A stretch of DNA of 37,444 nucleotides from Candidatus Magasanikiibacteriota bacterium (GTDB taxonomy: Bacteria; Patescibacteriota; Patescibacteriia; Magasanikbacterales; UBA10146): assembly GCA_016212585.1 (NCBI GenBank), contig JACRFU010000075.1, forward strand, positions 1 through 37,444, in the 5' to 3' direction. The first letter of the stretch is position 1. Every line of letters begins with the position of its first letter. Of this stretch, positions 10,251-37,296 are shown in pieces. The position numbers and the translations under genes are program-made. The notes beneath the pieces are model-generated. The model worked only from the letters and a program-made list of their open reading frames with translations, was not told the origin of the DNA and made no database searches.

Positions 10251-10289
10251 ATATACTTATTAAAAATAAATAAATTTAAATACTAAAAA

Positions 10290-12353: not shown

Positions 12354-12370
12354 AAACTATTTTGCATTAA

Positions 12371-13075: not shown

Positions 13076-13090
13076 ATCGTGCTATCAAAA

Positions 13091-13378: not shown

Positions 13379-13402
13379 ATGCTCAATGTTATATCAGTTC
13401 CT

Positions 13403-13431: not shown

Positions 13432-13466
13432 GTGCCTCCAAAAATTGTCAATGGCGTGCGTTTTGT

Positions 13467-15907: not shown

Positions 15908-15914
15908 AAAATTA

Positions 15915-16193: not shown

Positions 16194-16197
16194 ATGA

Positions 16198-16731
16198 TTA
16201 ACTCTTTAAATTAAACGAATTAAAATTATATTGAGGTGTTATTTTACATGCTCCATACAATTGTCTATAAATATTTTCAATAAGCCAATAAATAGACGCG
16301 AATAAAAAAATTAAGCTTATCACTTTTAATTCCAACCCCTTAAAAGGCAAGGACATAAGCGCAAATGGCGCGCCAATGAGCGCCAAAAGCGGGGCTCCGC
16401 ATGTTGGGCACCCGGAAGCAACAATGCCTCCAAACGCACCACTTGCGCCCAATGCCGTGCCAGTAGCCGCCTTTCCTTGCTTAATAATATCTCTCCGCAA
16501 AAGCCACACCGTGGCGTACAAGCCAAAAAATATTGAAACGAGCAAAGTGAGCACAACAGACAAAATAGTAAACCACGCGCCGTTCATAAGCGCGTACGCG
16601 TAGATGCTTTTGCCGGTAATGTTAAATATCATCAAATAATACGAAATGCCAAACATGACAAACCCCGCGGCGAGCGCCGTCAAAAAATATCGTTTTCTTT
16701 TCAATGAGGAAAAAAGTATTGCAAAAAACAT
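16198..16731 (-). CDS. Polytopic membrane protein with an intramembrane GCPTCG motif, unknown family
   Basis: I prefer the ATG at 16731 (MFFAILFSSLKRKRYF...), which lies 1 nt after the stop of the upstream thioredoxin-like gene. The track start at 16782 would overlap that gene by 50 nt. Motif: GAFGGIVASGCPTCGAPLLALIGAPFALMSLPF. Confidence 0.65.
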   Translation of the reverse strand: MFFAILFSSLKRKRYFLTALAAGFVMFGISYYLMIFNITGKSIYAYALMNGAWFTILSVVLTLLVSIFFGLYATVWLLRRDIIKQGKAATGTALGASGAFGGIVASGCPTCGAPLLALIGAPFALMSLPFKGLELKVISLIFLFASIYWLIENIYRQLYGACKITPQYNFNSFNLKS

Positions 16732-16732
16732 A

Positions 16733-17581: not shown

Positions 17582-17608
17582 ATTTTAAAGATTACTCAAA
17601 ATATAAAC

Positions 17609-18031
17609 TTAACAACCCCCAACTTGATTCGGCAGGCCTTGTCCAGAACCTGAAGGCACACCAACAGCGGCTGGCGAAGACTTAAAATCTCCAGATTTTA
17701 ATTTACTATACAGTGACGCAGTCTGAACGGTCTGGAGTATAGAAAGCAACGCTAACACACCTAAAACAACACTCACTGTGGCACTCCCCCACGACAAAGG
17801 CGCGCGGTGCTGTTTGTTGATACTCATCAAAATTTCGTTCTTCAATTCTTCCAACACTGCGCCTTCTGCTGGTGGAACACTCTTAAAATTTTCATGATCT
17901 TCGCTCGCAACAGAATATTCTGTAACATTGTTAGAATTATCATACATTTTTTGGCCATGAATTGAGTCATGGGCGCAACAAGATGATTTTGTCTCCGCCT
18001 CTTCATTATTTTTGTGTATATGCGTTGTCAT
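17609..18031 (-). CDS. Single-pass membrane protein with an N-terminal His/Cys-rich segment (SSCCAHDSIHG) and a C-terminal LPNQVGGC tail
   Basis: 140 aa. One TM (ATVSVVLGVLALLSILQTV), a Gly/Ser/Pro-rich C-terminal linker, and a terminal ...GLPNQVGGC-stop confirmed in the DNA. No family was recognised. Confidence 0.6.
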   Translation of the reverse strand: MTTHIHKNNEEAETKSSCCAHDSIHGQKMYDNSNNVTEYSVASEDHENFKSVPPAEGAVLEELKNEILMSINKQHRAPLSWGSATVSVVLGVLALLSILQTVQTASLYSKLKSGDFKSSPAAVGVPSGSGQGLPNQVGGC

Positions 18032-18076
18032 ATAAATGTATGTTAAAAAATAAGTATTTAATGTATTGATCTTGCG

Positions 18077-18865
18077 CTAGCAGCCACCAACTTGTCCGGG
18101 GAGCTTCACCTCACTTGGCAAAGGCGCGCTTTTGCTGTCCGCGCTGTATTGAGGAACTTTTAAGGTAAGCAGTAATGCAGCAACATCCGGCGTATACTGC
18201 CCACTCACCAATTGTTTTGAAATCTTATCAACCATTGCTTTGGGGAAATAACTGCCTTTCCAGCGCGCCAATTCACGCAAAATCTGATCATCGGTATACT
18301 CTAACGCGTGTTTCTCCAATAAATACGCCGCCAGACCGCGCATGGCTTGAGAATGCGCGCAACCGCACGCCGCATCGCCATTTTGCTGTATAAGAGCCGT
18401 AGCTCCGCAACAAAACTCACAAGCAATTTTTGTGCCCACATTAATGTATCGTTTTAACAAATCACCGGAGAGTTGGATTTTTTTACTGCCATACGTGGGA
18501 TCAAAGTCTTTCATGATATTCATAGATTGAGGGACGTTCGCAAAATCTACCACCAACTCATTTCCATATACTTCTGGCACGCCTTGAGCAAGCGCCAGTT
18601 TTATCGCGTCTTGCCCCACATTTCCTGTCAAACCTCTGTTGGTGCCGACATTTAATTTTACACTTAACTTAGTGAGAAAATTATTTGATTGCACACCGGC
18701 AAACTCTCTGCTTTTTGAAAGGACAAATTGATTGGTAAAAAGTGAAATGGTTATTACTACGAGCAAAACACTATTAATGGTTGAACGTCTTTTCAACCAT
18801 GACGTACCATGACGTGAATAATACGCCGATTCTCTTTTGTCTGATTCTTTTGGTATTTCATGCAT
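18077..18865 (-). CDS. Membrane-anchored extracytoplasmic Cys-cluster protein (CEFCCG...CGCAHSQAM) with a C-terminal LPGQVGGC tail
   Basis: 262 aa. N-terminal TM (INSVLLVVITISLFT), a Cys cluster KIACEFCCGATALIQQNGDAACGCAHSQAM, and a terminal ...KLPGQVGGC-stop confirmed in the DNA. No family was recognised. Confidence 0.65.
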   Translation of the reverse strand: MHEIPKESDKRESAYYSRHGTSWLKRRSTINSVLLVVITISLFTNQFVLSKSREFAGVQSNNFLTKLSVKLNVGTNRGLTGNVGQDAIKLALAQGVPEVYGNELVVDFANVPQSMNIMKDFDPTYGSKKIQLSGDLLKRYINVGTKIACEFCCGATALIQQNGDAACGCAHSQAMRGLAAYLLEKHALEYTDDQILRELARWKGSYFPKAMVDKISKQLVSGQYTPDVAALLLTLKVPQYSADSKSAPLPSEVKLPGQVGGC

Positions 18866-18883
18866 AAAAAATAAATTAAAAAT

Positions 18884-18906
18884 AGCTACTACACAGTATA
18901 GTAGCT
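18884..18906 (-). promoter_or_regulatory. Palindromic operator-like site 2 (AGCTACTA-CACAGTA-TAGTAGCT), 19-41 nt upstream of the 262-aa gene
   Basis: 8-bp perfect inverted repeat with a 7-nt centre. The core TACTACACAG-T-ATAGTA is identical, apart from one central base, to the site upstream of the BlaI-like gene. On the minus strand it is followed by a T-rich run, so it could also act as a weak terminator for the M56 gene. Confidence 0.5.
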
Positions 18907-18977
18907 TTTCATTAAAATGTCAAATCTGGTCAAAAAATCTTATCCACAAGTCAAAATTTCATTCGGCGGCAAACCCA

Positions 18978-20030
18978 TTAAGGCAATTGACAAGAGTCCA
19001 CACTTTTATACGCAACATGCCTCATTGAGCAACGTTGATAATAACTATCGACTTTGCACATAGTACCGCTTAATTGAGTAAGTTCAGATGAAATACAGCT
19101 ATTTTCATAAGAACCAAACGCCTTTGAAGTGTCTGTCAAAAAAACAAACAAAAGAAGAGACGCAATTATGATTGATGACATACCAAGCAAAAATCCTCTG
19201 CCAAACAATCCAAACCTCGGAATATAATTGTCATCGGACAGCCTATTGACTCGTTCATCTATGACTGAACTAAAAAAAGACAATGCGAGTCCCGCGCGTA
19301 TTATATTTTTTTCTTCTCTTTGAGCCACTTTAAAAATTGCCCGCGCCAGAATTGATTTGTTCAAAAAATTATTCGTCGCCAGCTCATCCGCGGCCAGTTC
19401 GGAAAATGTTATGTATTTTTTTATAATTGTCTTTATTCCCGGCACAAAAAACAATACGCGTTGAAAATATTTCAAGACAAAAAGCCTTAATGGATCATGA
19501 GAAATAAGATGGTGCCGCTCGTGCAAAAGCACAGCGCTTAATTCAGCATATTCTAAAATATCAGTCAAGCCATTTGCAATACAAATTTTTGATCGTACAA
19601 TACCAAAACAAAAAACTATAGGCTCTTTACTTCTTATCTCCACAACCCTGCCCGGCGCGATACCAAGACTATCAAGCGATCTTTTGAGTTTTGAAGAATG
19701 AGTTGTTTTGGATAATTTTAAATAATCTATTGAGTATTTTCTTGTGCGTATCATCAAACTTACCAAGGTATACAACGCAAACCCCAAAAACGAAGTGGCA
19801 AAGATCCCCAACGCCCCCAAAGCCGCAAAAAGATAAGGATGTGAAGCAAGCGAAGCCATTTGAGAACATCCGCACGTCGTTTTAATTTTGTGTGTTATCA
19901 TTGGCAGATACAACCAAATTTTCTCGTAAATTTTAAAAAAAGCCATAGTAAGCAGGCCAAAAATAATACCAATTAAAAAAATGGCTTGTATAAAAGCTTT
20001 ACCTGTCTTTTGAGCAAATGGCGAGCGCAT
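18978..20030 (-). CDS. BlaR1/MecR1-like M56-family membrane metalloprotease/signal transducer. It lacks a penicillin-binding sensor domain and has a short Cys-rich C-terminal ectodomain.
   Basis: 350 aa. HExxH motif (LLHERHHLISHDP) within a Peptidase_M56-like region and multiple TMs. The first loop contains TTCGCSQMASLASH. After the last TM there are only ~55 aa, with 4 Cys (YENSCISSELTQLSGTMCKVDSYYQRCSMRHVAYKSVDSCQLP). Its start is 1 nt after the BlaI-like gene stop. Confidence 0.8.
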   Translation of the reverse strand: MRSPFAQKTGKAFIQAIFLIGIIFGLLTMAFFKIYEKIWLYLPMITHKIKTTCGCSQMASLASHPYLFAALGALGIFATSFLGFALYTLVSLMIRTRKYSIDYLKLSKTTHSSKLKRSLDSLGIAPGRVVEIRSKEPIVFCFGIVRSKICIANGLTDILEYAELSAVLLHERHHLISHDPLRLFVLKYFQRVLFFVPGIKTIIKKYITFSELAADELATNNFLNKSILARAIFKVAQREEKNIIRAGLALSFFSSVIDERVNRLSDDNYIPRFGLFGRGFLLGMSSIIIASLLLFVFLTDTSKAFGSYENSCISSELTQLSGTMCKVDSYYQRCSMRHVAYKSVDSCQLP

Positions 20031-20031
20031 A

Positions 20032-20418
20032 CTACTTTATAAACTTTTTTAATTTTTCCTTCCATCGGCCGGATTGTCGCGCGTCTGATTTTTCAATAAT
20101 ATCAAGAAATTGCGCGACCGCCACATCCCCATAAGTCTTAATAAAATTTTTAATTATCTTCTCGGAAGCATTTTCCAAAAAAGATTTTTTATCATTCACG
20201 GGAACATATAAAAAAGCGCCGCTTTTGTCCATTCTCCGTTTGAGCACCCCCTTATCGCTCAAACGGGCCATAACCGTCATTATGGTGGTATAGGCGATTT
20301 TTCTTTTTTTGCTCAACAGAGCCAGAACATCTCTCACATTAGCTTGTCCCGCTTCCCAAACTATATCCATAATTTCCGCTTCTAAATCTCCAAATATTTT
20401 TATTGTATTTCGCACCAT
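20032..20418 (-). CDS. BlaI/MecI/CopY-family winged-helix transcriptional repressor
   Basis: 128 aa. Penicillinase_R pattern: LGDLEAEIMDIVWEAGQANVRDVLALL...IAYTTIMTVMARLSDKGVLKR. It has no C-terminal CxCxxxxCxC metal site, so it is not a classical CopY. Confidence 0.85.
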   Translation of the reverse strand: MVRNTIKIFGDLEAEIMDIVWEAGQANVRDVLALLSKKRKIAYTTIMTVMARLSDKGVLKRRMDKSGAFLYVPVNDKKSFLENASEKIIKNFIKTYGDVAVAQFLDIIEKSDARQSGRWKEKLKKFIK

Positions 20419-20429
20419 AGATGTAATTA

Positions 20430-20450
20430 GTTACTACACAGAATAGTATA
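20430..20450 (-). promoter_or_regulatory. Operator-like site 1 (GTTACTACACAGAATAGTATA), 12-32 nt upstream of the BlaI-like start codon
   Basis: Core TACTA-CACAGAA-TAGTA (20432-20448) is a 5-bp inverted repeat with a 7-nt centre. It matches site 2 at 16 of 17 core positions. Confidence 0.5.
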
Positions 20451-20515
20451 ACAAAACCCGAGAAACCTTGCAAGCCATGCAATTTCATGGCACACTGTCC
20501 ATATACTAATTTCCC

Positions 20516-21643: not shown

Positions 21644-21805
21644 CATAAGACTTGTCCCCAAATAGGCTTTCGTTACGAAATTGCCAAATTTTGAGGCAAA
21701 ATTGTTGAATAAATTTTGAGGTTTAACAGCGGTTAAGCTGAAAAATTTTGAAATAATTTTGACCGAAATTTGGCAATTGCAGCAGAAATGCTATTGGGGG
21801 ACAAG
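21644..21805. repeat. Long-hairpin intergenic repeat (LHR), subfamily B, copy B1
   Basis: It has the same invariant core as the A copies (TTGTTGAATAAATTTTGAGGTTTAA-CAGCGG-TTAAGCTGAAAAATTTTGAAATAATTTT). Its arms differ from the A copies but are mutually complementary: CTTGTCCCCAAATAG / CTATTGGGGGACAAG, and AATTGCCAAATTT / AAATTTGGCAATT. It lies between convergent gene ends. Confidence 0.85.
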
Positions 21806-21834
21806 GATATAGATGCGCGAGATTGCGTGAACAT

Positions 21835-25194: not shown

Positions 25195-25668
25195 TTACTT
25201 ATACTGCGAGGAATAATAATCATACAGCGGATTAACCGTCGCTTTGAGCAGATAATTGAACACCAAACGAGAAATACCATACGCGGAAAGCACAATCGCA
25301 ATGCCAATGACGCCATTGGTAATCAAACCTTTGGCGGTTTTGATTTTGTCCTCTTCTCCACCGGCGGTAAGCCACAAAAAGCCCGCGTACACCACCAGTC
25401 CCACAAACACCATACCGAGCAACGAGAGTGAAACATAAATAATATACGCTACTGTCTGGCGCGGGTCTTGATTTTTAAGCCCCGTGCTTTTGCCCGCGGT
25501 GTCTAATTGTTTGTTAATATCCGCGGCGGCGTTGGTTTGCGGTTCTTGCGCGAGCTGATAGGCGGCGCGCGCTTGCGGCGCTTGCAGTAGTAATGCAAAA
25601 ACAGCTCCAACCACCCATAAAAGAAAAGGGCTGGCGGCAAAAAAATGTTTGCGTAATGATGTTTGCAT
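25195..25668 (-). CDS. TrbC/VirB2-like (CPR T4SS_pilin-type) small membrane protein, paralog 1 of 10
   Basis: I prefer the ATG at 25668 (MQTSLRKHFFAASPFLLWVVGAVFALLLQAPQARA signal), which avoids a 73-nt overlap with paralog 2. Core: LLGMVFVGLVVYAGFLWLTAGGEEDKIKTAKGLITNGVIGIAIVLSAY. Confidence 0.75.
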   Translation of the reverse strand: MQTSLRKHFFAASPFLLWVVGAVFALLLQAPQARAAYQLAQEPQTNAAADINKQLDTAGKSTGLKNQDPRQTVAYIIYVSLSLLGMVFVGLVVYAGFLWLTAGGEEDKIKTAKGLITNGVIGIAIVLSAYGISRLVFNYLLKATVNPLYDYYSSQYK

Positions 25669-25700
25669 ATAACGCGTTGAAAATCTTCTTTGAAAATTAA

Positions 25701-26120
25701 TTAAGGCTTCACGCCCGGTGTTGAGGATGCCGGCTGTGTGAGAGATGACTGCACAATAGCTCCAACAATCCATTTGGTGATACCAAAAGACGATAACACA
25801 ATAATCAGCCCAATAATAGCGTTGCGAAGATATTTTATGGCGGTTTTTATCTGTTCTTCATCCCCGCCGGCGGTAAGGTACTGATAGCCCGCAAAGACCG
25901 TAAAAGCCAAAAATAAGACGCCCAATATCCCGAGCGACGCGGATATAATGTTGCCTACTGTCTGGGCAAGCGAGGTATCATCCCCAGCAGTGTTATACTT
26001 TGCGTTTTTCCCCACCCCTTGAAGTAAACTTTGCGCGGTTTCCGGCGTTTCCGCGTCAAGGCGTAACGGAAAAACTAACAACAAACTAAACGCAAGAAAA
26101 GCTAATAAAGTAAATTTCAT
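25701..26120 (-). CDS. TrbC/VirB2-like small membrane protein, paralog 2 of 10
   Basis: 139 aa. Signal peptide (LLAFLAFSLLLVFPLRLDA). Core: ILGVLFLAFTVFAGYQYLTAGGDEEQIKTAIKYLRNAIIGLIIVLSSF. Confidence 0.75.
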   Translation of the reverse strand: MKFTLLAFLAFSLLLVFPLRLDAETPETAQSLLQGVGKNAKYNTAGDDTSLAQTVGNIISASLGILGVLFLAFTVFAGYQYLTAGGDEEQIKTAIKYLRNAIIGLIIVLSSFGITKWIVGAIVQSSLTQPASSTPGVKP

Positions 26121-26212
26121 ATCAACAATATTTGAATAAGATTCAAAATAATCTTATGGATACCACATTGAGAAACCGCATTAAGAATTCTTTAATGATG
26201 CATCTTCCATGA

Positions 26213-26635
26213 TTACTTAGCTGACGGGCTTGCCGTGGTTGTTGTCGCGTTGGTGAGCCTTGTTACGATAAAGTTAGTCAGCACATACGCCGCGAGCACC
26301 ACCGCCATGCCAATGGTCGCCATAATGATAATATCTTTTGCTTTTTTGGCCTGTGTCTCGTCTCCGCGCGCGATCATCCAAATATACCCCCCATAGACGG
26401 TTAAAATTAAAAATATAACTCCCACGAGCGTCAAAGCGATATTAATAATGCCGCCAACCTGCTTTTCAAAAGCGCCCTGTTCAAGTTTGCCTGTGCCGCC
26501 ATATACGCCGCTTCCAACTTTTTCCAATCGTCCTTGAAGCGTAGGAGGAGGATCAGCTGCAAATACAGGAGACACTGTCCACACAACGCTATATACAACA
26601 AAAAAAACAAACAGGAGAGAGAAAACATATTTCAT
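26213..26635 (-). CDS. TrbC/VirB2-like small membrane protein, paralog 3 of 10
   Basis: I prefer the start at Met13 of the track ORF (MKYVFSLLFVFFVVYSVVWTVSPVFA signal). Core: LVGVIFLILTVYGGYIWMIARGDETQAKKAKDIIIMATIGMAVVLAAY. Confidence 0.75.
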   Translation of the reverse strand: MKYVFSLLFVFFVVYSVVWTVSPVFAADPPPTLQGRLEKVGSGVYGGTGKLEQGAFEKQVGGIINIALTLVGVIFLILTVYGGYIWMIARGDETQAKKAKDIIIMATIGMAVVLAAYVLTNFIVTRLTNATTTTASPSAK

Positions 26636-26698
26636 AATTATGTTTACTATATTGAATTTAAATAGACTCATTTTAAAGATGTTGGAAATGTTTGTGCA

Positions 26699-27100
26699 CT
26701 AACCAGGAGCATTAAATACTTGGGTTGCCACCAGGTAGGTGGCGGTGTAAGAAAGCAAAATAATCACCATGCCAATGGTCGCCATAATGATAATATCTTT
26801 TGCTTTTTTGGCCTGTGTCTCGTCTCCGCGCGCCGTCATCCACAAAAACCCGCCATAGAGCATCAAAAGAAAAAACGCGACGCCGACAAAAGAAAGTGCC
26901 ACTTGAATAATTTGTCCAACTCTTTTTTCAGGATCGCTTGAAACATCCAACCCCGCGCCTCCAGAGCCAGCTGCTTGTTTAAATTGTTTGTCCGCGTCGC
27001 CAAAGTTAAGCGCGGCGCGCGCTGGAAATACGCTTCCCAACCACACTGCCGGCACCGCGGTCGCGATCATTATACTCGCAATGCTTTTATTCAAACGCAT
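26699..27100 (-). CDS. TrbC/VirB2-like small membrane protein, paralog 4 of 10
   Basis: 133 aa. Signal (IMIATAVPAVWLGSVFPARA). Core: FVGVAFFLLMLYGGFLWMTARGDETQAKKAKDIIIMATIGMVIILLSY. Confidence 0.78.
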   Translation of the reverse strand: MRLNKSIASIMIATAVPAVWLGSVFPARAALNFGDADKQFKQAAGSGGAGLDVSSDPEKRVGQIIQVALSFVGVAFFLLMLYGGFLWMTARGDETQAKKAKDIIIMATIGMVIILLSYTATYLVATQVFNAPG

Positions 27101-27104
27101 AAAA

Positions 27105-27662
27105 TTATTTAACCGCAGTTACCACATTACTAAACACGAATGAAGTAATAATACCCGCGGCGGCAACAATAATAATGCCAATGACCGCGTCTATGATAAT
27201 ATCTCTTGCTTTTTTGGCCTGCGTCTCGTCTCCGCGCGCCATCATCCACAAAAACCCGCCATAGAGCATCAACAGGAAAAACGCGATGCCTACGAGTGAA
27301 AGCACCACTCCAATAATCTTTCCGGTAATTCCCGCGACGGTTCCGCTTGTTTTTATTCCCGCGGCTCCGGCTGTTGCGTTGAGACCGTAGTTTCCTCCGC
27401 TAATTTCTCCTGTTTTACTGCTCTCAGTTTTATTTTGTGAACACTCACTAAACACACTGCATGGCTGATTAAGTTTTAAATTTCCGCTACATTGACTAAT
27501 AGTGGCATTGTCAAGACAAAAATTATTGCTATTCACACAACATCCTTCGTTTGTTGCATAAACCAACTGAGGAAAAGTTACCAAACTTAAAATATTTACC
27601 ACTGAAAAAACTAAGGCTGAAAAAACTAAAATGTTGCGCTTCATAAGTAAATTTGTTTCCAT
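27105..27662 (-). CDS. TrbC/VirB2-like membrane protein with an N-terminal six-Cys module, paralog 5 of 10
   Basis: 185 aa. A signal is followed by NEGCCVNSNNFCLDNATISQCSGNLKLNQPCSVFSECSQ. Core: LVGIAFFLLMLYGGFLWMMARGDETQAKKARDIIIDAVIGIIIVAAAG. An alternative start exists at Met7 (27644). Confidence 0.75.
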   Translation of the reverse strand: METNLLMKRNILVFSALVFSVVNILSLVTFPQLVYATNEGCCVNSNNFCLDNATISQCSGNLKLNQPCSVFSECSQNKTESSKTGEISGGNYGLNATAGAAGIKTSGTVAGITGKIIGVVLSLVGIAFFLLMLYGGFLWMMARGDETQAKKARDIIIDAVIGIIIVAAAGIITSFVFSNVVTAVK

Positions 27663-27722
27663 AATAATTTTCTTCTATCTGATTGCGTGTGCAATAAAAC
27701 ACAAGAAAGTTATTATTCAAAC

Positions 27723-27767
27723 CCTCTCGCCAGAGCGCGTCATGCGTGCGCGCGCCCCGGCAAGAGG
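27723..27767 (-). terminator. GC-rich hairpin in the 181-bp gap that splits the pilin array (possible terminator or attenuator)
   Basis: The minus-strand stem CCTCTTGCC / GGCGAGAGG is 9 bp with one G-U. It encloses a second GCGCG/CGCGC stem and is followed only by a short TTT. This is the only long intergenic gap inside the array. Confidence 0.35.
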
Positions 27768-27843
27768 CAGATATATCTGAAAAATTCCGCGCGTTTGTTA
27801 TGAATCAATATCGCGCTCTAACAACTTTAATTTTATTTTTATC

Positions 27844-28272
27844 CTAGGATGTGGCCTTTACCAAACTGTCTATGACGAACTTGGCGATGGCGTACGCGGA
27901 CAATATAATCGCCAAACCAATCACGCCGGCGATAATGCGTTTTTTTGCTTCCCCTGTTTTTTCTTCATTTCCTCCGGCAGTCATCCATTCAAAACCGCCA
28001 ATAAGGATAATGACAACAGCCACAATGCCGAGCAAACCTAGCGCGACGTTGATGATGTTGCCAACGGTTACACGAATATCTTTATTGCCCAAACCTGTTG
28101 ATCCACTTAGACTTTCACTATTAGAGTTTCCAATACCTTCAATGCCCAGCGCCTTGTTGCCGTTAGTAGTATCAATAGGAACTGGCGTATACGCCGATGC
28201 CAACGCAGGAACCAACATTGTCCCCAATAAGCTCGCGGTTGCTAAAAATGAAATAATTTTTTTCTTTGTCAT
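27844..28272 (-). CDS. TrbC/VirB2-like small membrane protein, paralog 6 of 10
   Basis: I prefer the ATG at 28272 (MTKKKIISFLATASLLGTMLVPALASA). The track's TTG-initiated MKGGEN extension is the translated Shine-Dalgarno region (AAGGGGGTGAAAAC-ATG). Core: LLGIVAVVIILIGGFEWMTAGGNEEKTGEAKKRIIAGVIGLAIILSAY. Confidence 0.8.
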   Translation of the reverse strand: MTKKKIISFLATASLLGTMLVPALASAYTPVPIDTTNGNKALGIEGIGNSNSESLSGSTGLGNKDIRVTVGNIINVALGLLGIVAVVIILIGGFEWMTAGGNEEKTGEAKKRIIAGVIGLAIILSAYAIAKFVIDSLVKATS

Positions 28273-28320
28273 GTTTTCACCCCCTTTCAAATAGTAAAGA
28301 TAATTTGCTTGTCAAAAAAT

Positions 28321-28710
28321 TTATGTGGTAGCGCTCACCAAACTATTAATAACAAACTTGGCGATGGCGTACGCGGACAATATAATCGCCAAACCAATCA
28401 CGCCGGCGATAATGCGCTTTTTTGCTTCTCCTGTTTTATCTTCATTGCCTCCGGCAGTCATCCACTCAAAACCGCCAATCAGGATGATGACAACGGCCAC
28501 AATGCCGAGCAAACCCAATGCCACGTTGATGATGTTCCCAACGGTAACGCGAATGTCTTTTTGCCCCAAGCCGGTATACACGCCATAATTGACACCCAAC
28601 GCGTCTCCTTGAGAAATTGGCGGCGGCACAGGGTCAGCAAACACAGGAGCCGCCATCAAAAGCGTTAAAGCTCCTGTGGCAAACGCTGCTGCAATTTTTT
28701 TTGTATTCAT
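28321..28710 (-). CDS. TrbC/VirB2-like small membrane protein, paralog 7 of 10
   Basis: 129 aa. Signal (AAAFATGALTLLMAAPVFA). The C-terminal ~80 aa are almost identical to paralog 6 (…DIRVTVGNIINVALGLLGIVAVVIILIGGFEWMTAGGNEDKTGEAKKRIIAGVIGLAIILSAYAIAKFVI…). Confidence 0.8.
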   Translation of the reverse strand: MNTKKIAAAFATGALTLLMAAPVFADPVPPPISQGDALGVNYGVYTGLGQKDIRVTVGNIINVALGLLGIVAVVIILIGGFEWMTAGGNEDKTGEAKKRIIAGVIGLAIILSAYAIAKFVINSLVSATT

Positions 28711-28747
28711 AAAGAATTTAAATTAAGTAATAAATTTCTAAAATGTT

Positions 28748-29170
28748 TTATAACTTTCCCCCAAGCGCGTCAAAAACAAACTTAAGCAAAATATAACTAG
28801 TCAAAATTACGATAATGCCTATGCCTGACCACATAAACACATCTCTTCCTTTCTTTATTTTATCAGGACTGCCTCCAGAGGTCAACCACAAAAAACCGCC
28901 ATACACAAACATAATAAGCGCGATGGAGCCAATTATCCCCAGCACCGGCTTGATCACCCGCTCCCCCACAATGACAAATATGTCCGTTGTGCCCAATGGA
29001 TTGTCCAAATCAACAGTTGCCTGTCCGGCGGCGCGCGCAAAATGCACTGCGCCAACTATGCCTAAAAACAAAGCGCATAACCCAGCGCAGAGAATAAATT
29101 TTCTTTGCAGTACGAAATAATTTTTTGAGGCAATCGTGCTGTTTTGTAAATTCTTGGAGTGCATTTTCAT
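28748..29170 (-). CDS. TrbC/VirB2-like small membrane protein, paralog 8 of 10 (start uncertain)
   Basis: 140 aa. Core: IIGSIALIMFVYGGFLWLTSGGSPDKIKKGRDVFMWSGIGIIVILTSY. The first codons (MKMHSKNLQ) lie inside a copy of the 43-nt repeat, so the start codon may be repeat-derived or a downstream non-ATG start may be used. Confidence 0.7.
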   Translation of the reverse strand: MKMHSKNLQNSTIASKNYFVLQRKFILCAGLCALFLGIVGAVHFARAAGQATVDLDNPLGTTDIFVIVGERVIKPVLGIIGSIALIMFVYGGFLWLTSGGSPDKIKKGRDVFMWSGIGIIVILTSYILLKFVFDALGGKL

Positions 29171-29188
29171 AAGGTGATGTCCATAGGC
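29146..29188. repeat. Solo copy of the 43-nt arm of the foldback element
   Basis: GTAAATTCTTGGAGTGCATTTTCATAAGGTGATGTCCATAGGC matches 1604-1646 at 40/43 positions in the same orientation. It overlaps the 5' end of pilin paralog 8. Confidence 0.75.
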
Positions 29189-29194
29189 TTCATA

Positions 29195-29842
29195 TTATTG
29201 CAATGCTGAAAAAACAAATTGCACCAGTATATAGCTGGCAAAAATTACCACAAGCCCCAACACTGTCCAGAGCATTATCTTTGCGGACGAACGCGTGCGT
29301 TCTTCATTGCCTGCCGCGGTCATCCACATTATACCGGCGTAGATGAGCAACACGAGCGCGATTGAACCCACCACAGAGAGTGCGGACTTAATTATTGTGC
29401 CAATAAACCCTTGTACCGAATAATTGCCTAATGGATCAAACAACGCGCCAATTTTAAAAGTCCCGCCCCCCACAGGCTTAAAGCTTGGAGGAGTACCTAT
29501 TTTCCCTAAAGTGCCCGCACCTCCTCCTGTTTTTTTCTTTGCACTGGTGCTTTTGCATTCTGAATATAAACTGCATTTACTGTTTGCCTTACTGTCAAAA
29601 TTTTCTTCCCCTCCAAGCGCGTCCGCACACTTGGCATCAACCTCCGTCTTATTATCATAATTTGCCTTTATTTCCGCGCACGCAATTTCTCCTTGCTTGG
29701 ATTTTGGAGGGAAACAACAAATTGTCTCTTGTTTGTTTTCACTCTTATTTTCAGCAAGCACAGAAAACGGTGATATTAAAGACAATACTGAAACAACAAA
29801 AATGAGTGAGATCGTGTTAAAAAAATGTTTATTAATCCGCAT
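29195..29842 (-). CDS. TrbC/VirB2-like membrane protein with an N-terminal Cys-rich module, paralog 9 of 10
   Basis: 215 aa. A signal is followed by ETICCFPPKSKQGEIACAEIKANYDNKTEVDAKCADALGGEENFDSKANSKCSLYSECKS. Core: VVGSIALVLLIYAGIMWMTAAGNEERTRSSAKIMLWTVLGLVVIFASY. Confidence 0.75.
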   Translation of the reverse strand: MRINKHFFNTISLIFVVSVLSLISPFSVLAENKSENKQETICCFPPKSKQGEIACAEIKANYDNKTEVDAKCADALGGEENFDSKANSKCSLYSECKSTSAKKKTGGGAGTLGKIGTPPSFKPVGGGTFKIGALFDPLGNYSVQGFIGTIIKSALSVVGSIALVLLIYAGIMWMTAAGNEERTRSSAKIMLWTVLGLVVIFASYILVQFVFSALQ

Positions 29843-29845
29843 ACT

Positions 29846-30391
29846 CTATTTTTTATCTGTTGAATCCGGCAATTTAACCTCCAAAAGATTATTTTGATTT
29901 TGGTTTTGCGCGGGGACCAAACCTTGAATGACAAACCGCACCAACATCTGTGCGCCAAAGGTAATGAGAAGACCAATGACCGCTCCCAAAATAGCGTCCC
30001 GCCCTTTTTTGACCATTTCCGGACTGCCCGCGGAAATAAGGAGCAAGACTCCGCCATAAATAAAGAAAAGAAACGCCGCGGCGCCGATGATAGCAAATGT
30101 GGCGTTTGAATAATTTACAAAAAGCGCAAGAAACGCGCCAACGTCGCGGCATCCGCCTCCCGGCGTGCCTTCACTGTCCGCGCATTTTGGAATGAATAAA
30201 CTTTTTCCCGGACCGCCTTCCGGACTTCCCAAATTAGTTGGCGCGCCAAAAACCGCAGGTTTTGACGCAGAGGTCGCCTGAACTAAAATAACAGCTAAAG
30301 CATCATTTGCGGAAAATAAAAAAACTCCACCCAAAACAAAATTCAACACAACACTCGCCATGAAAACAAATTGTTTTATTGTATCCCTCAT
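29846..30391 (-). CDS. TrbC/VirB2-like membrane protein, paralog 10 of 10 (first in transcription order)
   Basis: 181 aa. Signal/anchor, a two-Cys loop (IPKCADSEGTPGGGCRD), core IIGAAAFLFFIYGGVLLLISAGSPEMVKKGRDAILGAVIGLLITFGAQ, and a Gln/Asn-rich tail. Confidence 0.7.
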   Translation of the reverse strand: MRDTIKQFVFMASVVLNFVLGGVFLFSANDALAVILVQATSASKPAVFGAPTNLGSPEGGPGKSLFIPKCADSEGTPGGGCRDVGAFLALFVNYSNATFAIIGAAAFLFFIYGGVLLLISAGSPEMVKKGRDAILGAVIGLLITFGAQMLVRFVIQGLVPAQNQNQNNLLEVKLPDSTDKK

Positions 30392-30406
30392 AATCCCACA
30401 TTTTTA

Positions 30407-30567
30407 GGGTCTGTCGCCAAATGCGCTTTTGCAGTGAAATGCGCAGATTTCGAGACAAAATTGTTGAATAAATTTTGAGGTTTAATTGCAAATTAAGCTG
30501 AAAAATTTTGAAATAATTTTGTCCGAAAGATGCGCATTGCAACCAAAATGGCATTCGGCGACAGACC
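30407..30567. repeat. Long-hairpin intergenic repeat (LHR), subfamily A, copy A2 (complete)
   Basis: The termini GGGTCTGTCGCCAAATGC and GCATTCGGCGACAGACC are complementary (one A-C). The inner arms AATGCGCAGATTTCGAGACAAAATT / AATTTTGTCCGAAAGATGCGCATT are complementary. The invariant core is at 30461-30513. It fills the gap between the SBP gene stop (30571) and the pilin paralog 10 start (30391). Confidence 0.9.
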
Positions 30568-30570
30568 ATT

Positions 30571-31965
30571 TTAAGGCCCAATTGTTTGCCCTACGCGCGC
30601 GGCAGCCTGCTGGAGCGCTTTTTTATATGCGTCCGGGTCGTTCAATGCCGCTTCGCTGGTTACTCCATCTATCATCTGCAAAAACGCTGTGTCCGCGGCG
30701 GCCGCGTCTCGCCCCTTATACCAACTCTTGGCGGTCAACGCGCTCTCTGCAAACGGGCCAATGACCGCGTCGTCTTTTTGCCCAGCCACCAGCGCGCGCA
30801 ACGCGGACGGCTTTTTTGTTTTGTTCAAGTAACTTTGCACCTGTTTTTCTTGCGCGGCAAATTGTATAAAATCCCACGCCTCATTTTGATGCGCGCTTTT
30901 CTTTGCAACGGTCTCAACCCAATAACTTGCAAAATTCACCGGAACATCAGGATTCAACTGTGGCAAAGGCGTTACTGAATAATTCAATTTTGGCGCGCGC
31001 GCCTCAACCTGCGGGATATTATATGAATAGCCAAAATAAAATCCTGCTACACCGCGCGTAAACGCGTCCAGAGAATTAGGCATGGTTTTATTCCATGTAT
31101 AGCCTTTCTTTGTTGTGTTTGCAAAATCGGTGTAAAAACGCAATGCCTGCTCGCCCGGGCCAACCTCTTGAGTGTAGCCTTGAGGAATCGCTTGAAATTC
31201 CGGTGTGCCGTCGTCAAGTGCCATTGTGGCGCCGCCCTGCATCATTAAAACAGACAAAATATCCGCCGCACGCGCCACATTGGCACTCCCGCCTATTGCC
31301 GATCCCGCTTGCACCACCTTATTATCCGTATTGACTTTAGCCATTGAAATAACATTATCCAAAAATTGATCCCATGTTTTGGGCGGCGTGCCAATGCCGG
31401 CTTTGTCCAGCATATCTTTGTTGTAAAAAAGCGCGAGCGTATCCACCGCAAATGGCAATCCCCAAATTTTTTCTTCACTTGTTGCGGCGTCTCTGCGCAC
31501 CACATCCCCTGCCACAACGCCAACAAAATTATCTTTTATTTGTTTAATTGTTGGAGACGGAATCGTTTTGGTGGTTACCACCAACTGTTTGCTGATGGTC
31601 CCCTCTATGCTCTGGAAAGTTGATTTAACAGAAGCGGGCATAGGCGCGATTTTGCTCTGATACTTGCCAACCCATGTATTTTGAATTGAAAATAAATCTG
31701 GTCCGCGGTCTTCCGCGAGCGCGTTGATGAGTTCTTTTTCAAATTCGTCCGGCAAAAGTTTTCTGTAGGTAATTTTTATATGCGGGTGCAGTTGTTGATA
31801 CGCGCCAATAATTTCCGCCATGCTGTCTGAATCGTCAAACACGCGCCAATAGTTAAGCTCCACCGGCTTAATAGCGTCTTGTTGTGCTTGCGACAAACCT
31901 TTACACCCCAACCCTGAAGTGAGTAAAAAAACCGTGAGAAAAGAAAAAATAAATATACGCCGCAT
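30571..31965 (-). CDS. ABC-transporter extracellular solute-binding protein, family 1 (sugar-type), probable lipoprotein
   Basis: I prefer the ATG at 31965 (MRRIFIFSFLTVFLLTSGLGCKG, lipobox-like), 1 nt after the galU stop. Family pattern: NYWRVFDD, DLFSIQNTWVGKY, WGLPFAVDTLALFYNKDMLDKAGI..PPKTWDQF. No permease or ATPase genes occur in the window. Confidence 0.8.
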   Translation of the reverse strand: MRRIFIFSFLTVFLLTSGLGCKGLSQAQQDAIKPVELNYWRVFDDSDSMAEIIGAYQQLHPHIKITYRKLLPDEFEKELINALAEDRGPDLFSIQNTWVGKYQSKIAPMPASVKSTFQSIEGTISKQLVVTTKTIPSPTIKQIKDNFVGVVAGDVVRRDAATSEEKIWGLPFAVDTLALFYNKDMLDKAGIGTPPKTWDQFLDNVISMAKVNTDNKVVQAGSAIGGSANVARAADILSVLMMQGGATMALDDGTPEFQAIPQGYTQEVGPGEQALRFYTDFANTTKKGYTWNKTMPNSLDAFTRGVAGFYFGYSYNIPQVEARAPKLNYSVTPLPQLNPDVPVNFASYWVETVAKKSAHQNEAWDFIQFAAQEKQVQSYLNKTKKPSALRALVAGQKDDAVIGPFAESALTAKSWYKGRDAAAADTAFLQMIDGVTSEAALNDPDAYKKALQQAAARVGQTIGP

Positions 31966-31966
31966 A

Positions 31967-32860
31967 TTATATTTTAAGTGAGCGTAGATAATCTTTGATG
32001 CCTTTTGATAAATCCGGATGGCGGAGCGCAAAATCAACCTGCGCTTTGATGTACTCCAATTTATTGCCGGTATCATAATATCGTCCATTTTGTATCTCCG
32101 CCGCGTACATTGGATAGCCGGATTTCATGAGTTGCGTAATCGCATCTACAAGCCAGATCTCTCCGCCCCTGCCCGGCGCGAGCTCTTGCAAATAAGGAAA
32201 AATCTTGCCGGGCAAAATATACGCGCCATGAGCCGCTAGATTTGATGGTGCGTCTTTGGGGTCTGGTTTCTCCATAATTGATTTGATGCAAAACACGCTC
32301 TGTTCTCCTTTTATTTTTTCCACATCCGCAATACCGTAACGCGCGACATCTTCACGATTTTTGATCCGCACCGCTGAAATAACTCCTCCGCCATATTTTT
32401 CATAGACTTTCATCATCTGCGAAAGGCGCCCTGGTTCCGCGTAAATAAGTTCGTCGCCCCAGAGCACTACAAAATCTTCACTCTTGTCTATAAGATGCCG
32501 CGCGCAATACACCGGCGTGCCGTTGCCATAAGGGCCTTTTTGGCGCACATACACAAAATTTGCCATTTCTGCGATGCGCTGGACTTCTCGCAACTGTTTT
32601 ATCTTGTCGTCTGCTTTAAGCCGCGCCTCCAGCTCAAACGAATGATCAAAATGATCTTCTATAGAGCGCTTATTGTAGCCCGTTATGATAATTATGTCCG
32701 TAATCCCGGCCTCCACCGCCTCTTCCACCACATACTGAATAATTGGCTTATCTATAAGAGGAAGCATTTCTTTCGGCATTGCTTTGGTGGCAGGCAAAAA
32801 GCGCGTGCCCAAACCCGCCGCGGGTATAATTGCTTTGGTTATTTTTCTTTTTTCCGCCAT
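31967..32860 (-). CDS. galU: UTP-glucose-1-phosphate uridylyltransferase
   Basis: I prefer the ATG at 32860 (MAEKRKITKAIIPAAGLGTRFLPATKAMPKEMLPLIDKPIIQYVVEEA). Later motifs include VLWGDEL and the EKP region (MEKPDPKDAPSNLAAHGAYIL). The track's 40-aa N-terminal extension is a translation of repeat B2. Confidence 0.9.
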   Translation of the reverse strand: MAEKRKITKAIIPAAGLGTRFLPATKAMPKEMLPLIDKPIIQYVVEEAVEAGITDIIIITGYNKRSIEDHFDHSFELEARLKADDKIKQLREVQRIAEMANFVYVRQKGPYGNGTPVYCARHLIDKSEDFVVLWGDELIYAEPGRLSQMMKVYEKYGGGVISAVRIKNREDVARYGIADVEKIKGEQSVFCIKSIMEKPDPKDAPSNLAAHGAYILPGKIFPYLQELAPGRGGEIWLVDAITQLMKSGYPMYAAEIQNGRYYDTGNKLEYIKAQVDFALRHPDLSKGIKDYLRSLKI

Positions 32861-33018
32861 AAGACTTGTCCCTAAATACGATTTCGTTACGAAATTGCCA
32901 AATTTTGAGGCAAAATTGTTGAATAAATTTTGAGGTTTAACAGTGATTAAGCTGAAAAATTTTGAAATGATTTTGACCAAAATTTGGCAATTGCAGTAGA
33001 AATGGTATTTTGGGACAA
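32858..33018. repeat. Long-hairpin intergenic repeat (LHR), subfamily B, copy B2
   Basis: The left end CATAAGACTTGTCCCTAAATAC... is shared with B1 and includes the complement of the galU ATG. The right end is ...GTATTTTGGGACAA. Arms AATTGCCAAATTT / AAATTTGGCAATT. Invariant core with loop CAGTGA. Confidence 0.85.
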
Positions 33019-33040
33019 ATCTTTAGATTGTATTGTGGAT

Positions 33041-34417: not shown

Positions 34418-35842
34418 TCACGAGGGAAAGTCGCTTGGTTTGGCTCCGGTATTAAAGGGGCACTGCGCGTCGTTCTTGGGACTGGTCAAATTTTCAACTC
34501 CCATACTGCGCATTGTCTGTACGGTCTTGACCCCGTTGCCGTAGCTTGCGGCATGAAAAATCTCCGGATGAGCTTCCCACGCTTTTGTATCGCACCCATA
34601 ATTTTTAATCGCCTTGCGCAAAGCCCCGGGACCGCTTCCGTTATTAAACAACAACATGTGGAGCTTGTCATTGGCTCCCGCGCTCCCGCACATGCCGTTG
34701 ATGGTATTCAACGCCATTTTAAAATGCCCTTGTGTCACAATCGCGGTACTGACCGCTGGATTAGTGAGCCCGGGATTTACACAATATTCATCCCATCCAA
34801 CTTTCTTCAACACTTTATCACAATAGCCTTTCAACACCTGAAAAAGTCCTGTGGCTGATCCTTTTGTATTTTTTGCCGCTGGGTTCAACCGCGACTCATG
34901 AAACGCGAGTACCTTGTACACGCGCCAATCCATGCCGATGCACCCGGCAAATTTCTGAAACAAAGCATCGTAGGTGGTATTACTTAATGCTTTGGGAGTA
35001 CCTGTAGGCTCCCCACGATCGGGGAACTCCGCGTCTTCAAGCGAGACATTTTCAACAACAGGAATACGCAATGACTGAAACCTCACCAAATCCGGATTGA
35101 TGATATACAAGACTAAATACGAACCAATCACCAAGACCAATCCAACCAAAGCCCCCTTAATGCGCTCAAGAGCGCTGGATCTTTGTGCTGAATTGCCGCC
35201 AGATATAATCCACTGAAATCCGCCGACCATAATCATCACCGCGGAAATGACTCCCGCAATGGAAATTAAAAAACGATACAGCGCCGCCAGATATTCTGCC
35301 AGATACGAAACATATACAACGCCGCCGCCTGCCTCCTCTTGCTGTGGTTGGGGTGAGGAGAAACCTTTGAATCCAGGAATGTTGATTGCCAGTGAAGGGG
35401 CTACAGGTTTCCATTCAATTTTTTTTGTGATACCGCCCTCACCATCCGGTTTAGAGCCTTCGGGGGTTTTCCACACACACTGCTCCGTTGAAAAATTATT
35501 TTTAATAAGATAATTGGAAAACGCGGAACAATCATCTTGAGAAGGAGTAAGCCGATTAGTATCTAAACCAAGACCACTTTGCAATTTGCAGGTGCACGGG
35601 CTCCATGTGTCAGATTTATTTATTTCAACGCACGAACTAAAAATTTTTTCCGTATTTCCTTTGAGATTTGTCAACTGCGCGCCGGGTAATTCACTATTGC
35701 AACCAAGAGATGCTACTTTGACATTTACGCTTATACCATCTGAAAGTGTGCATTGGCAGTAGCCAAAATCAGCCTGCACGGAAAGTGGCAAAAAAGTTAT
35801 AAGTATAAAAAATGGCAAAACAAATTTGAAACCGTGTAGCAT
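34418..35842 (-). CDS. Three-part secreted/membrane protein: N-terminal Cys-rich domain + TrbC/VirB2-like pilin domain + C-terminal SLT-family lytic transglycosylase
   Basis: 474 aa. Signal (FVLPFFILITFLPLSVQA). The Cys-rich ~110 aa include YCQCT...LGCNS...SSCVE...SPCTCK...DDCSAF...EQCVW. Pilin-like core: IAGVISAVMIMVGGFQWIISGGNSAQRSSALERIKGALVGLVLVIGSY. SLT motifs: VLAFHESRLNPAA (catalytic Glu-Ser), SATGLFQV, LLFNNGSGPG. Confidence 0.8.
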   Translation of the reverse strand: MLHGFKFVLPFFILITFLPLSVQADFGYCQCTLSDGISVNVKVASLGCNSELPGAQLTNLKGNTEKIFSSCVEINKSDTWSPCTCKLQSGLGLDTNRLTPSQDDCSAFSNYLIKNNFSTEQCVWKTPEGSKPDGEGGITKKIEWKPVAPSLAINIPGFKGFSSPQPQQEEAGGGVVYVSYLAEYLAALYRFLISIAGVISAVMIMVGGFQWIISGGNSAQRSSALERIKGALVGLVLVIGSYLVLYIINPDLVRFQSLRIPVVENVSLEDAEFPDRGEPTGTPKALSNTTYDALFQKFAGCIGMDWRVYKVLAFHESRLNPAAKNTKGSATGLFQVLKGYCDKVLKKVGWDEYCVNPGLTNPAVSTAIVTQGHFKMALNTINGMCGSAGANDKLHMLLFNNGSGPGALRKAIKNYGCDTKAWEAHPEIFHAASYGNGVKTVQTMRSMGVENLTSPKNDAQCPFNTGAKPSDFPS

Positions 35843-35853: not shown

Positions 35854-37296
35854 TTATGGATTCTTGATTTCATCCCAAGAAATCACCTTGTACTCGGTTC
35901 CAACAGGAAACGCCGGCGGCGGACCGTAAGTGAGGTTGGCGTCATAGGTGGCGTTGGTATTTTTGTAGCCGGAAATCGTCGCGCCGCCGCCAGAAACCCA
36001 ACTCCATGTCCACACGCCATTGCTGATGACGCTTCCATACACCGTAAGGCTCGTCAAGATATTGCCCATATAATAAAACCTTTGCGCGCTGCCGTTTTGG
36101 GCGATGAGTGCCGCGTCTATCTCCATTGAAGCAGGTGAATAACGGGGCAACAAGACATCTTTTTGCGCCATCAAACCAAGAGCATCACTCCCGTCTTTTG
36201 TTGAATATACAATTGATTGCGGAATAATAATTGAAGTATAGGTGTTTTGATTCACCGGAAAACGACCGGAACCAATGGTCGCGCGGCCTTTGATGACGCC
36301 ATTGACCCATACTTGATCCTCAAAAAACATAAACCCATTGGAGGGAATGGCATAATTCCCTTGCGAGACCTCTGTTTTGATATCATACGATTCATAATGT
36401 TTCTTGCCATTGATATCCATACCCCACCCGGGCGAAGGCAGTGCGTTGAGCGCGGTTACTTTATACAAATTAAAAGTGCTGTTTTCTTGAAACACCACAT
36501 GATACCCGTATTTCCCTGAAGCGGATCGATAAAATCCGCCATTTTGCGCTCCTGTTTTTATTTTCGCAAGATCAATGGTAATGCCATTAAAATCAAACGC
36601 GGGAACCGGATACTTCCAGAAACTCTTAGGGCCTCCTGCACCCCACACACCGGGTTTGGTGGTGTTATTGCACCCAGACCCATGCATTGGCTGGCATTGA
36701 TAGGTTGATTTGGCGCTCGTAATAGGCGCGTCCGCCTGGCCGTCAAACCGTATGCCGCCGTTCGCGTGCAATTTACCGTGCACTACCTCGGTATTGCCAA
36801 TCCACACATCGCTATTGGTTAAAAAACTATAATCACTCAAAGACGGAAACCCAATACGCACTTTGAGCGTGCGTTTGTTTTTTTGGTTTGCAAGCGTGTA
36901 GCCGGTAGATTTGATGGTGATAACACTTCCCCCATTGGGCGGCGCGGTAATATCTAAACTAAATTTCCCTACGGCAGTGCCATTTTTATCTTTGTAATCA
37001 TGCACATATGGACCCGGCGCGCCGGTGCCGTCTTGCAAATCTGCCGAATCATGCGCCAAATGCCAGCGATAATAATTGATTCCGGCCTCCGCAATCTGAA
37101 ACGCGAGCTCGCTCTGATTCTTGGCACGCGCCGCCCTGTTTTCCATTACGGCAAAATTGGTCATGCCTATAACGAGCGTGGTGATTGCCATTGACCCAAA
37201 CACCAATACAATGAGCAAAATGTTGCCGCGCCGATGATGACGCAAATGCCTCAAAAAACTGTTTCGTAATTCACAAATTATGGAAAAAACGCGCAT
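35854..37296 (-). CDS. PilX-like type IV (pseudo)pilin-type minor pilin with a large beta-rich C-terminal domain
   Basis: 480 aa. The N-terminal segment RRGNILLIVLVFGSMAITTLVIGMTNFAVMENRAARAKNQSELAFQIAEAGINYY matches the PilX_N pattern: a hydrophobic helix followed by E.R.....Q....A...AEAG. The remainder is Gly/Asn/Thr-rich with no recognised domain. Confidence 0.6.
   Translation of the reverse strand: MRVFSIICELRNSFLRHLRHHRRGNILLIVLVFGSMAITTLVIGMTNFAVMENRAARAKNQSELAFQIAEAGINYYRWHLAHDSADLQDGTGAPGPYVHDYKDKNGTAVGKFSLDITAPPNGGSVITIKSTGYTLANQKNKRTLKVRIGFPSLSDYSFLTNSDVWIGNTEVVHGKLHANGGIRFDGQADAPITSAKSTYQCQPMHGSGCNNTTKPGVWGAGGPKSFWKYPVPAFDFNGITIDLAKIKTGAQNGGFYRSASGKYGYHVVFQENSTFNLYKVTALNALPSPGWGMDINGKKHYESYDIKTEVSQGNYAIPSNGFMFFEDQVWVNGVIKGRATIGSGRFPVNQNTYTSIIIPQSIVYSTKDGSDALGLMAQKDVLLPRYSPASMEIDAALIAQNGSAQRFYYMGNILTSLTVYGSVISNGVWTWSWVSGGGATISGYKNTNATYDANLTYGPPPAFPVGTEYKVISWDEIKNP

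Follow-up and report, generated by a model that had tools for sequence, protein, structure and literature searches.

The window, that is, the whole 37 444-nucleotide stretch of DNA analysed here, is cellular and CPR-like in content, with two tRNAs, P-type ATPases, DsbD-type proteins, about 10 T4SS_pilin paralogues and a Xer-type recombinase. It is syntenic, at 72–88% nucleotide identity, with contigs resembling GW2011_GWA2_45_39 (L030/L031 and L036–L039) and with the Logan contigs L040 and L053–L055. The small paralogous T4SS_pilin-domain genes, some ten in number, form a tandem array on the minus strand (25195–30391), with an SLT-domain/pilin fusion at 34418–35842, and the array is kept in the relatives L036–L039, where its genes have diverged. 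The interval from xerD to an MGDG-synthase-like gene measures ∼19 kb in the window (1160–20500) as against ∼8.5 kb in L030 (11000–19470); the extra DNA, which carries a second P-type ATPase, thiol-redox genes and metal-repressor genes, is a putative variable metal-resistance island beside xerD and the two tRNAs. In L030 the gap between gyrA and xerD (8918–10000) holds ∼1 kb with no convincing ORF and with G+C-rich palindromic stretches, in which no Rfam family reached its gathering threshold.

Five copies and one decayed arm of an imperfect palindrome of 161–166 nt, designated F1, were located in the window. Copy bounds were set with a repeat finder and alignment, which gave three full copies (c2, c3 and c4) and two cut by the window ends (c1 and c5). 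The scores in the following list are those of the covariance model R1, which was built from an alignment (A2) of 18 distinct full-length copies and with which the window copies score 146–188 bits.

1–138, plus strand: copy c1, subfamily A, 5′ end cut by the window start; 145.9 bits over model positions 28–178; right end ...GGCGACAGACCC at 138, followed by ATAAT at 139–143
18942–18976, plus strand: decayed right arm on its own, AGTCAAAATTTCATTCGGCGGCAAACCCAT, between two minus-strand genes, identical to the consensus right arm at 26 of 30 positions (by eye)
21648–21808, plus strand: copy c2, subfamily B; 172.6 bits
30407–30568, plus strand: copy c3, subfamily A; 187.6 bits
32862–33023, plus strand: copy c4, subfamily B; 172.0 bits
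37304–37444, plus strand: copy c5, subfamily A, 3′ end cut by the window end; 146.2 bits over model positions 1–144

The element consists of inverted-repeat arms of ∼50 bp, with ends of the form (A)GGGYCTG...CAGRCCC(T), placed around an asymmetric conserved centre of ∼55–60 bp; on the left its terminus reads (A)GGGYCTGTCGCC.... The copies are noncoding, with stop codons throughout, and the ORFs overlapping them are short and unconserved. Two core blocks of the centre, TTGTTGAATAAATTTTGAGGTTTAA and TTAAGCTGAAAAATTTTGAAA, each matched five times in the window, in every case on the plus strand, compared with 0.00–0.02 matches expected from dinucleotide-preserving shuffles. The five hairpin-repeat sites named in an earlier reading made from the letters alone (the sequence-only reading) were thus borne out, as was its account of a near-invariant, asymmetric centre of ∼55 nt between long paired arms, each full copy forming one long hairpin. 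The density amounts to about one copy per 7 kb, with 2–21 kb from copy to copy.

Remnants of at least two more hairpin-repeat families are present in the window. One of them, F2, is a sister family of ∼160–190 nt hairpin repeats found in the same genomes, which has ∼35 nt of arm sequence in common with the inner arms of F1 and was traced at the following places.

L010, 15–185: F2 copy
L010, ∼6195–6385, minus strand: F2 copy
L011, ∼3310–3490, minus strand: F2 copy
L006, 2065–2226: F2 copy
Window, 37247–37275 and 29100–29135: F2 remnant arms

The F2 arms read TTTGAATTACGAAATG..TTGAGGCAAA, and the centre is unlike that of F1, being branched and rich in GC, and its sub-hairpins covary from copy to copy. 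No Rfam match beyond generic hairpin noise was obtained for F2, at the gathering thresholds or in a permissive search. As the arms are homologous to those of F1 and the centre is a different one, the two families point to modular, transposon-like evolution, and the comparison of their sequences suggests modular elements whose centres may be selected in their own right. One of the F2 remnant arms in the window also supplies the first ∼20 codons of the ORF at 35854–37296. A third hairpin element, of ∼196 nt, lies at 1453–1648 between tRNA-Arg and tRNA-His and ends in 33-nt inverted repeats with 97% complementarity; a partial copy at 29145–29192, located upstream of a pilin-like gene, matches its right arm at 93% identity and is joined to a remnant of an F2 arm.

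When folded as RNA, c3 and c2 gave −78.6 kcal/mol (z = −10.5 against shuffles) and −66.7 kcal/mol (z = −8.6), respectively, and RNAalifold analysis of alignment A2 yielded a single hairpin of 63 pairs. Compensatory double changes were found in 31 of these 63 predicted pairs as against 19.4 in column shuffles, and the share of paired cells reached 97.4% as against 86.7%, a value attained in none of 500 shuffles; when the partner was slid by 1–3 columns as a control, 36–53% of the cells were paired. Watson–Crick pairs made up 694 of the 738 cells of the ∼50-bp arms, which constitute the terminal inverted repeats, and covariation is perfect even at hypervariable positions of the arms. At its apex the hairpin has an inverted repeat, GGTTTAA/TTAAGCT, around a variable spacer of 6–7 nt, and two tandem G-A/A-G internal loops were read off the alignment in the centre.

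With RNA parameters the plus strand was the more stable one in all 18 copies, by 10–22 kcal/mol (−78.6 versus −64.9 kcal/mol for c3 and −66.7 versus −48.9 kcal/mol for c2). This advantage stems almost entirely from the conserved centre, whose mean is −15 kcal/mol on the plus and −5 kcal/mol on the minus strand and whose wobble cells comprise 42 G-U versus four A-C, the corresponding counts in the arms being 18 and 10. The G-T positions that had been noticed in the apical stem are real, U78-G94 being invariant in 18 of 18 copies and G76-U96 present in 12. With DNA parameters, however, the strands were near equal (−46.7 versus −45.2 kcal/mol), so that the hint of a plus-strand structure taken from those positions in the sequence-only reading holds for RNA and fails for DNA, and is relevant only if the functional form is RNA.

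These features could be expected if F1 were a multi-copy structured RNA, either a small RNA family or a cis-regulatory module, with a functional plus-strand fold and with mobility as a secondary matter: the covariation is strong, the plus strand is favoured in every copy, U-G/G-U pairs and the two tandem G-A/A-G loops are conserved in the centre, and F2 has its own branched centre with covarying sub-hairpins. The wobble pairs of the arms, on the other hand, show no strand bias. No consistent promoter or intrinsic terminator signal was detected at the F1 copies, the sole promoter-like site lying in the right arm of c4. At the gathering thresholds of Rfam only the two tRNAs of the window passed, so that the comparison called for earlier provided no Rfam family for F1; a permissive search gave plant miRNA-precursor hairpins of 13–35 bits against thresholds of 43–211 (the best, at 35 bits, against 140–195), which is generic long-hairpin noise. 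As the copies, moreover, lie sense or antisense to their neighbours with no rule and are absent from orthologous loci (see below), a structured RNA seems to us an improbable account of F1, and the suggestion of a structured ncRNA gene made in the sequence-only reading was not upheld.

All five window copies share one orientation, for which the two-sided chance is 1/16, and a uniform chromosomal orientation had been put forward as a feature of the repeats that called for an explanation. It is correct for the window and does not extend to the family, both orientations being present on contigs L006/L023/L026 and on JACRAK010000032.1. Among 25 tabulated copies, sense and antisense positions relative to the upstream and downstream genes occurred in every combination, and when the flanks were read in the direction of the element, their GC skew was negative in about half of the copies and positive in the rest. 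The 25-copy table thus ruled out an orientation rule set by the replication strand or by the gene strand, and the relation to the replication strand that was to be looked for proved absent. The common orientation in the window is a local coincidence and does not hold as a pointer to a special mechanism.

To define the distribution of the family, GTDB species genomes and JGI/ENA metagenome contigs were scanned with exact words, which more diverged relatives would escape. About 20 further distinct copies were obtained, exclusively from Magasanikbacteria-like CPR contigs or genomes and from groundwater metagenomes; the carriers comprise three Magasanikbacteria MAGs, one MAG labelled Azambacteria (4–5 copies on a 45-kb contig) and the groundwater metagenomes. 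Viral contigs gave no match to either core block, and the two terminal motifs matched there by chance only, inside unrelated coding sequence. Likewise, c3 found no BLAST match among PLSDB plasmids and GenBank phages.

Conservation of the core was measured for each block only in copies found via the other block, thereby avoiding circularity. Block 2 was 92% identical where the arms were 66% identical and block 1 97% where the arms were 83%; in the window copies, which had been found by eye, both blocks were 100% identical where the arms were 71%. Pairwise identity thus amounts to 66–83% in the arms versus 92–100% in core blocks not used for finding. A centre better conserved than the termini is the reverse of what transposase end recognition alone predicts.

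With the covariance model, no F1 copy was detected in L040, in L053–L055 or in the syntenic region, ∼60 kb in extent, of the GW2011_GWA2_45_39-like contigs. At all four comparable sites the orthologous positions of the relatives, whose nucleotide identity in these regions is 75–88%, were empty, and BLAST alignments between the window and these empty loci break exactly at the ends of the element. Copy c1 ends in ...GACAGACCC and its flank starts with ATAATATG, corresponding to the single ATAAT of the sequence GTCGT-ATAAT-ATGAG found upstream of xerD in L030, and this match places the insertion inside a TATAAT box. Copy c2, which is absent in L030/L031, separates the stop codon of the MGDG-synthase-like gene (plus strand) from a shared bidirectional terminator hairpin; GGGGTCTG, present at the empty site in L030, was considered as an excision footprint and rejected as ordinary diverged flank. 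Copy c3 directly follows the stop codon of a solute-binding-protein gene and precedes the start of the next pilin-like gene, both genes being on the minus strand; TTTTA stands on either side of the copy (30402–30406 and 30569–30573), and the spacer at this site measures 8–17 nt in four of five relatives and 54 nt in the fifth. Copy c4 has come to lie between the −10 box TGnTATACT and the start codon (ATG) of an NTP-transferase gene (minus strand) and is flanked by TA at 32860–32861 and 33024–33025, where the empty alleles of L040, L053 and L054 have a single TA. F1 insertions lie at A/T-rich spots in tight spacers, no more than a few nucleotides from a stop codon, a start codon or a −10 box.

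At the hairpin boundary, 4 of 17 copies had perfect direct repeats 5 nt or more in length (the three 5-mers TATAA, TAAAA and ATAAT and the 6-mer CTACAG), compared with a rate of 1.5% in mismatched flank pairs (permutation p < 0.001). The apparent duplication amounts to 5 bp in several copies of subfamily A, the two outermost bases of each ‘5-mer’ being complementary and possibly part of the hairpin, in which case the duplication would be 3 bp; in subfamily B it is TA or at most 3 nt. Many F1 copies have no clean flanking repeat.

Signs of decay were found as well. Solo arms of F1 occur in L010 and L019, as at position 18942 of the window, and truncated copies occur in L018, with a deletion into smpB, and upstream of gyrB in L006/L023/L026. 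The regions L018:3436–3560 and L028:4063–4300 have the same left flank and left element half, one of the two being without the right arm and the first ∼25 smpB codons; the difference reflects a deletion allele or else a chimeric assembly that ends in the core of the repeat. Contigs break inside F1 copies at both window ends, at the starts of L006 and L020 and at the ends of L016, L023 and L041, which is the behaviour expected of a high-copy repeat. As contigs from several samples stop within the element, short-read assemblies are fragmented by it, and copy numbers in MAGs must be underestimates. Truncated copies, solo arms and contigs ending in copies all fit a decaying mobile repeat.

Taken together, these observations indicate that F1 is probably a non-autonomous, MITE-like mobile DNA element that was recently inserted between genes in Magasanikbacteria-type CPR bacteria. 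Among the possibilities raised in the sequence-only reading, a REP-like element serviced by a distant transposase came closest to the evidence, given the empty orthologous sites, the direct repeats, the decayed and truncated copies and the lack of any gene in the element. F1 constitutes a hitherto undescribed family within a well-known kind of element, that of the bacterial intergenic palindromes resembling MITEs, ERIC and Correia elements (PMC3184786), and not a new kind of gene or a new recombination system; a search of the literature retrieved no description of MITE- or REP-like repeats in CPR/Patescibacteria.

Since a Phage_integrase-family gene starts 22 nt after c1, it had to be considered whether F1 is a site-specific recombination site, integron attC-like or Xer/dif-like, for this tyrosine recombinase, in keeping with the recombination- or replication-associated hairpin proposed earlier. 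The apical inverted repeat around a variable 6–7 nt spacer and the common orientation of the window copies would also suit such a site. The recombinase, however, has homologues of ∼60% identity by the thousands across Patescibacteria, annotated as XerD, and is thus a housekeeping Xer enzyme; its closest relative, at 94% identity, is that of Candidatus Magasanikbacteria GW2011_GWA2_45_39, and the site upstream of this orthologue (L030) is empty. It adjoins no other copy in the collected loci, the spacing of 2–21 kb is not cassette-like, copies lie in operons with target duplications, and elsewhere both orientations occur, with no relation to GC skew. A link between F1 and the neighbouring recombinase was therefore rejected, and a recombination site is by far the least probable of the explanations considered. 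attC sites are imperfect hairpins of 60–140 nt, conserved in structure more than in sequence and uniform in orientation within an array, and they may lie near a tyrosine recombinase; they bound gene cassettes beside IntI, which carries an additional, specific domain, and the base of the stem is their conserved part. F1 differs in its conserved apex, its irregular spacing within operons, its mixed orientation elsewhere and the ubiquitous Xer-type nature of a recombinase that is unlinked to the other copies, and was not regarded as an integron attC array.

Comparison with described elements supports the MITE-like reading and sets F1 apart from each of them. ERIC and ERIC-like MITEs are likewise imperfect palindromes of ∼130–160 bp that lie between genes in transcribed DNA, in either orientation, and differ in presence between relatives; ERIC and F1 have TA at the termini in common, and no transposase is known for either. 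ERIC, too, has a conserved central inverted repeat. F1 shows no sequence similarity to ERIC, resides in CPR hosts and has arms far more divergent than its centre, with extensive compensatory change. The Correia elements (CREE/NEMIS) of Neisseria insert at TA. Like F1, they are MITEs of 100–160 bp with long terminal inverted repeats, often near gene starts (PMC3184786); in Correia elements, however, the ends are conserved and defined promoters and an IHF site are present, whereas in F1 the centre is conserved and no consistent promoter was found. ERIC hairpins in RNA can alter mRNA fate, and Correia elements are co-transcribed, making long RNA hairpins possible (PMC3184786).

Tn3-derived MITEs (TIMEs) resemble F1 in their long stem-loop and, as regards several subfamily-A copies, in apparent A/T-rich target duplications of 5–6 bp, and the outer end of F1, GGGTCTGTCGCC, resembles the Tn3 end GGGGTCTGACGC (a Tn3 inverted-repeat sequence that was verified in at least 5000 plasmids), a likeness judged by eye and confined to the outer ∼12 nt. 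TIMEs are ∼262 bp long, with conserved 38-bp inverted repeats and a less conserved core, and usually occur as one copy per genome (PMC4133298). F1, in contrast, measures 161–166 bp, is present at high density, has ends that vary between subfamilies and lacks, by eye, the inner ...TAAG motif at positions 31–38; in subfamily B the duplications are TA only. On these grounds, and as no Tn3-type transposase was found among the scanned ORFs of at least 750 aa in the collected CPR loci, F1 was not filed as a TIME. The TIME IS101 keeps an internal resolution site (PMC4133298), which by analogy may serve as a precedent for a conserved functional centre.

To our knowledge, IS200/IS605 and RAYT systems make no target duplications. 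This bears on the possibility that F1 is REPIN-like, a hairpin that an HUH/Y1 transposase (RAYT or IS200/IS605-type), present as a single gene per genome, would cut out and put back as single-stranded DNA, with the centre as its recognition hairpin. REPINs are indeed noncoding, hairpin-forming mobile units whose hairpin is kept by compensatory changes, as are the F1 arms, and their singlet remnants are decayed copies (PMC3116915); the better conserved centre of F1, the one orientation of the five window copies and the failure to find a DDE partner could be read in the same sense. Short direct target duplications nevertheless flank several F1 copies, orientation is mixed with respect to both GC skew and genes over the 25 copies, and the conserved parts of a REPIN are its two terminal REPs and not its centre (PMC3116915). 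REPINs thus have conserved ends, a variable middle, a link to RAYT and no reported target duplications, while F1 has the opposite pattern of conservation and carries duplications. In view of these differences, and with no Y1 transposase domain among the 30 window ORFs, F1 was not assigned to the REP/REPIN elements, and we regard single-strand mobilisation of this REPIN type as unlikely, if somewhat less so than a structured RNA.

For the MITE-like reading, a partner enzyme was sought at low power. Pfam scans of the 30 window ORFs and of eight of the largest ORFs of the collected loci detected no transposase, so that the transposase looked for on the strength of the earlier note did not turn up in this set. 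No match was obtained by tblastn with E. coli IS1, IS5, IS30, IS26, rve, resolvase and integrase queries, a weak test in which the Xer gene was missed even with IntF. A search with solo ends for a longer element bounded by F1 termini returned decayed arms only, and these low-power searches detected neither an autonomous element nor a transposase with matching ends in the window, the collected CPR loci or the viral contigs.

As a MITE-like element, F1 would be moved in trans by a transposase making staggered cuts (DDE-type), whose gene would lie elsewhere in the genome or on a different replicon. The complementarity of the arms would then be required for spread, either because both ends are read by the same enzyme or by way of a folded intermediate, and the conserved centre would most likely act in cis, as a site for mobilisation or for resolving transposition products. 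The conservation of the centre over the ends and the perfect covariation of the arms are neither of them predicted by transposase end recognition. Two explanations, which do not exclude each other, are possible: firstly, a folded single-strand intermediate or recognition of the centre, as in REPINs, in which compensatory changes are frequent as well (PMC3116915), and secondly, template switching within the palindrome, by which a change in one arm is carried over to the other. In the copy at L013:4232–4425 (minus strand), the two outer arms have exchanged places around the centre, and a portion of the right core has given way to the reverse complement of the left one; this indicates rearrangement within the element, by inversion or by template switching inside the palindrome. 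On this evidence template switching appears to occur in F1, and it may help to keep the arms complementary.

A further reading goes beyond a MITE with an ordinary transposase. The F1 centre, with its U-G/G-U pairs and tandem G-A loops, and the branched F2 centre might be functional folded modules, that is, an RNA or single-stranded DNA motif for a CPR enzyme, with spread via a folded single-strand intermediate, by a mechanism that is so far undescribed, and with the covarying arms as mere scaffold. We hold this to be rather unlikely, albeit the least so of the alternatives set beside the MITE-like reading; if true, F1 and F2 would not be ordinary MITEs recognized by a transposase at their ends but a new class of mobile element that depends on structure, or else a mobile carrier of a regulatory RNA.

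Whatever moves the probable MITE, its sites comprise 5′ leaders, intercistronic spacers and positions upstream of terminators, and its predicted hairpin has −49 to −90 kcal/mol. As copies lie inside transcription units in either orientation, a very stable RNA hairpin would be added to host transcripts, and once transcribed F1 would probably alter mRNA processing or coupling as a side effect.

CPR/Patescibacteria genomes are ∼1 Mb in size and generally regarded as streamlined. In such genomes repeats of the F1 type are a real force in micro-evolution, splitting operons, replacing the 5′ ends of genes and displacing promoters, and in practice they cause CPR assemblies to fragment. Their insertions provide a strain-level marker for uncultured carriers, and the inverted pattern of conservation, with a centre more conserved than the ends and with covarying arms, provides a lead to what mobilises DNA in CPR bacteria.
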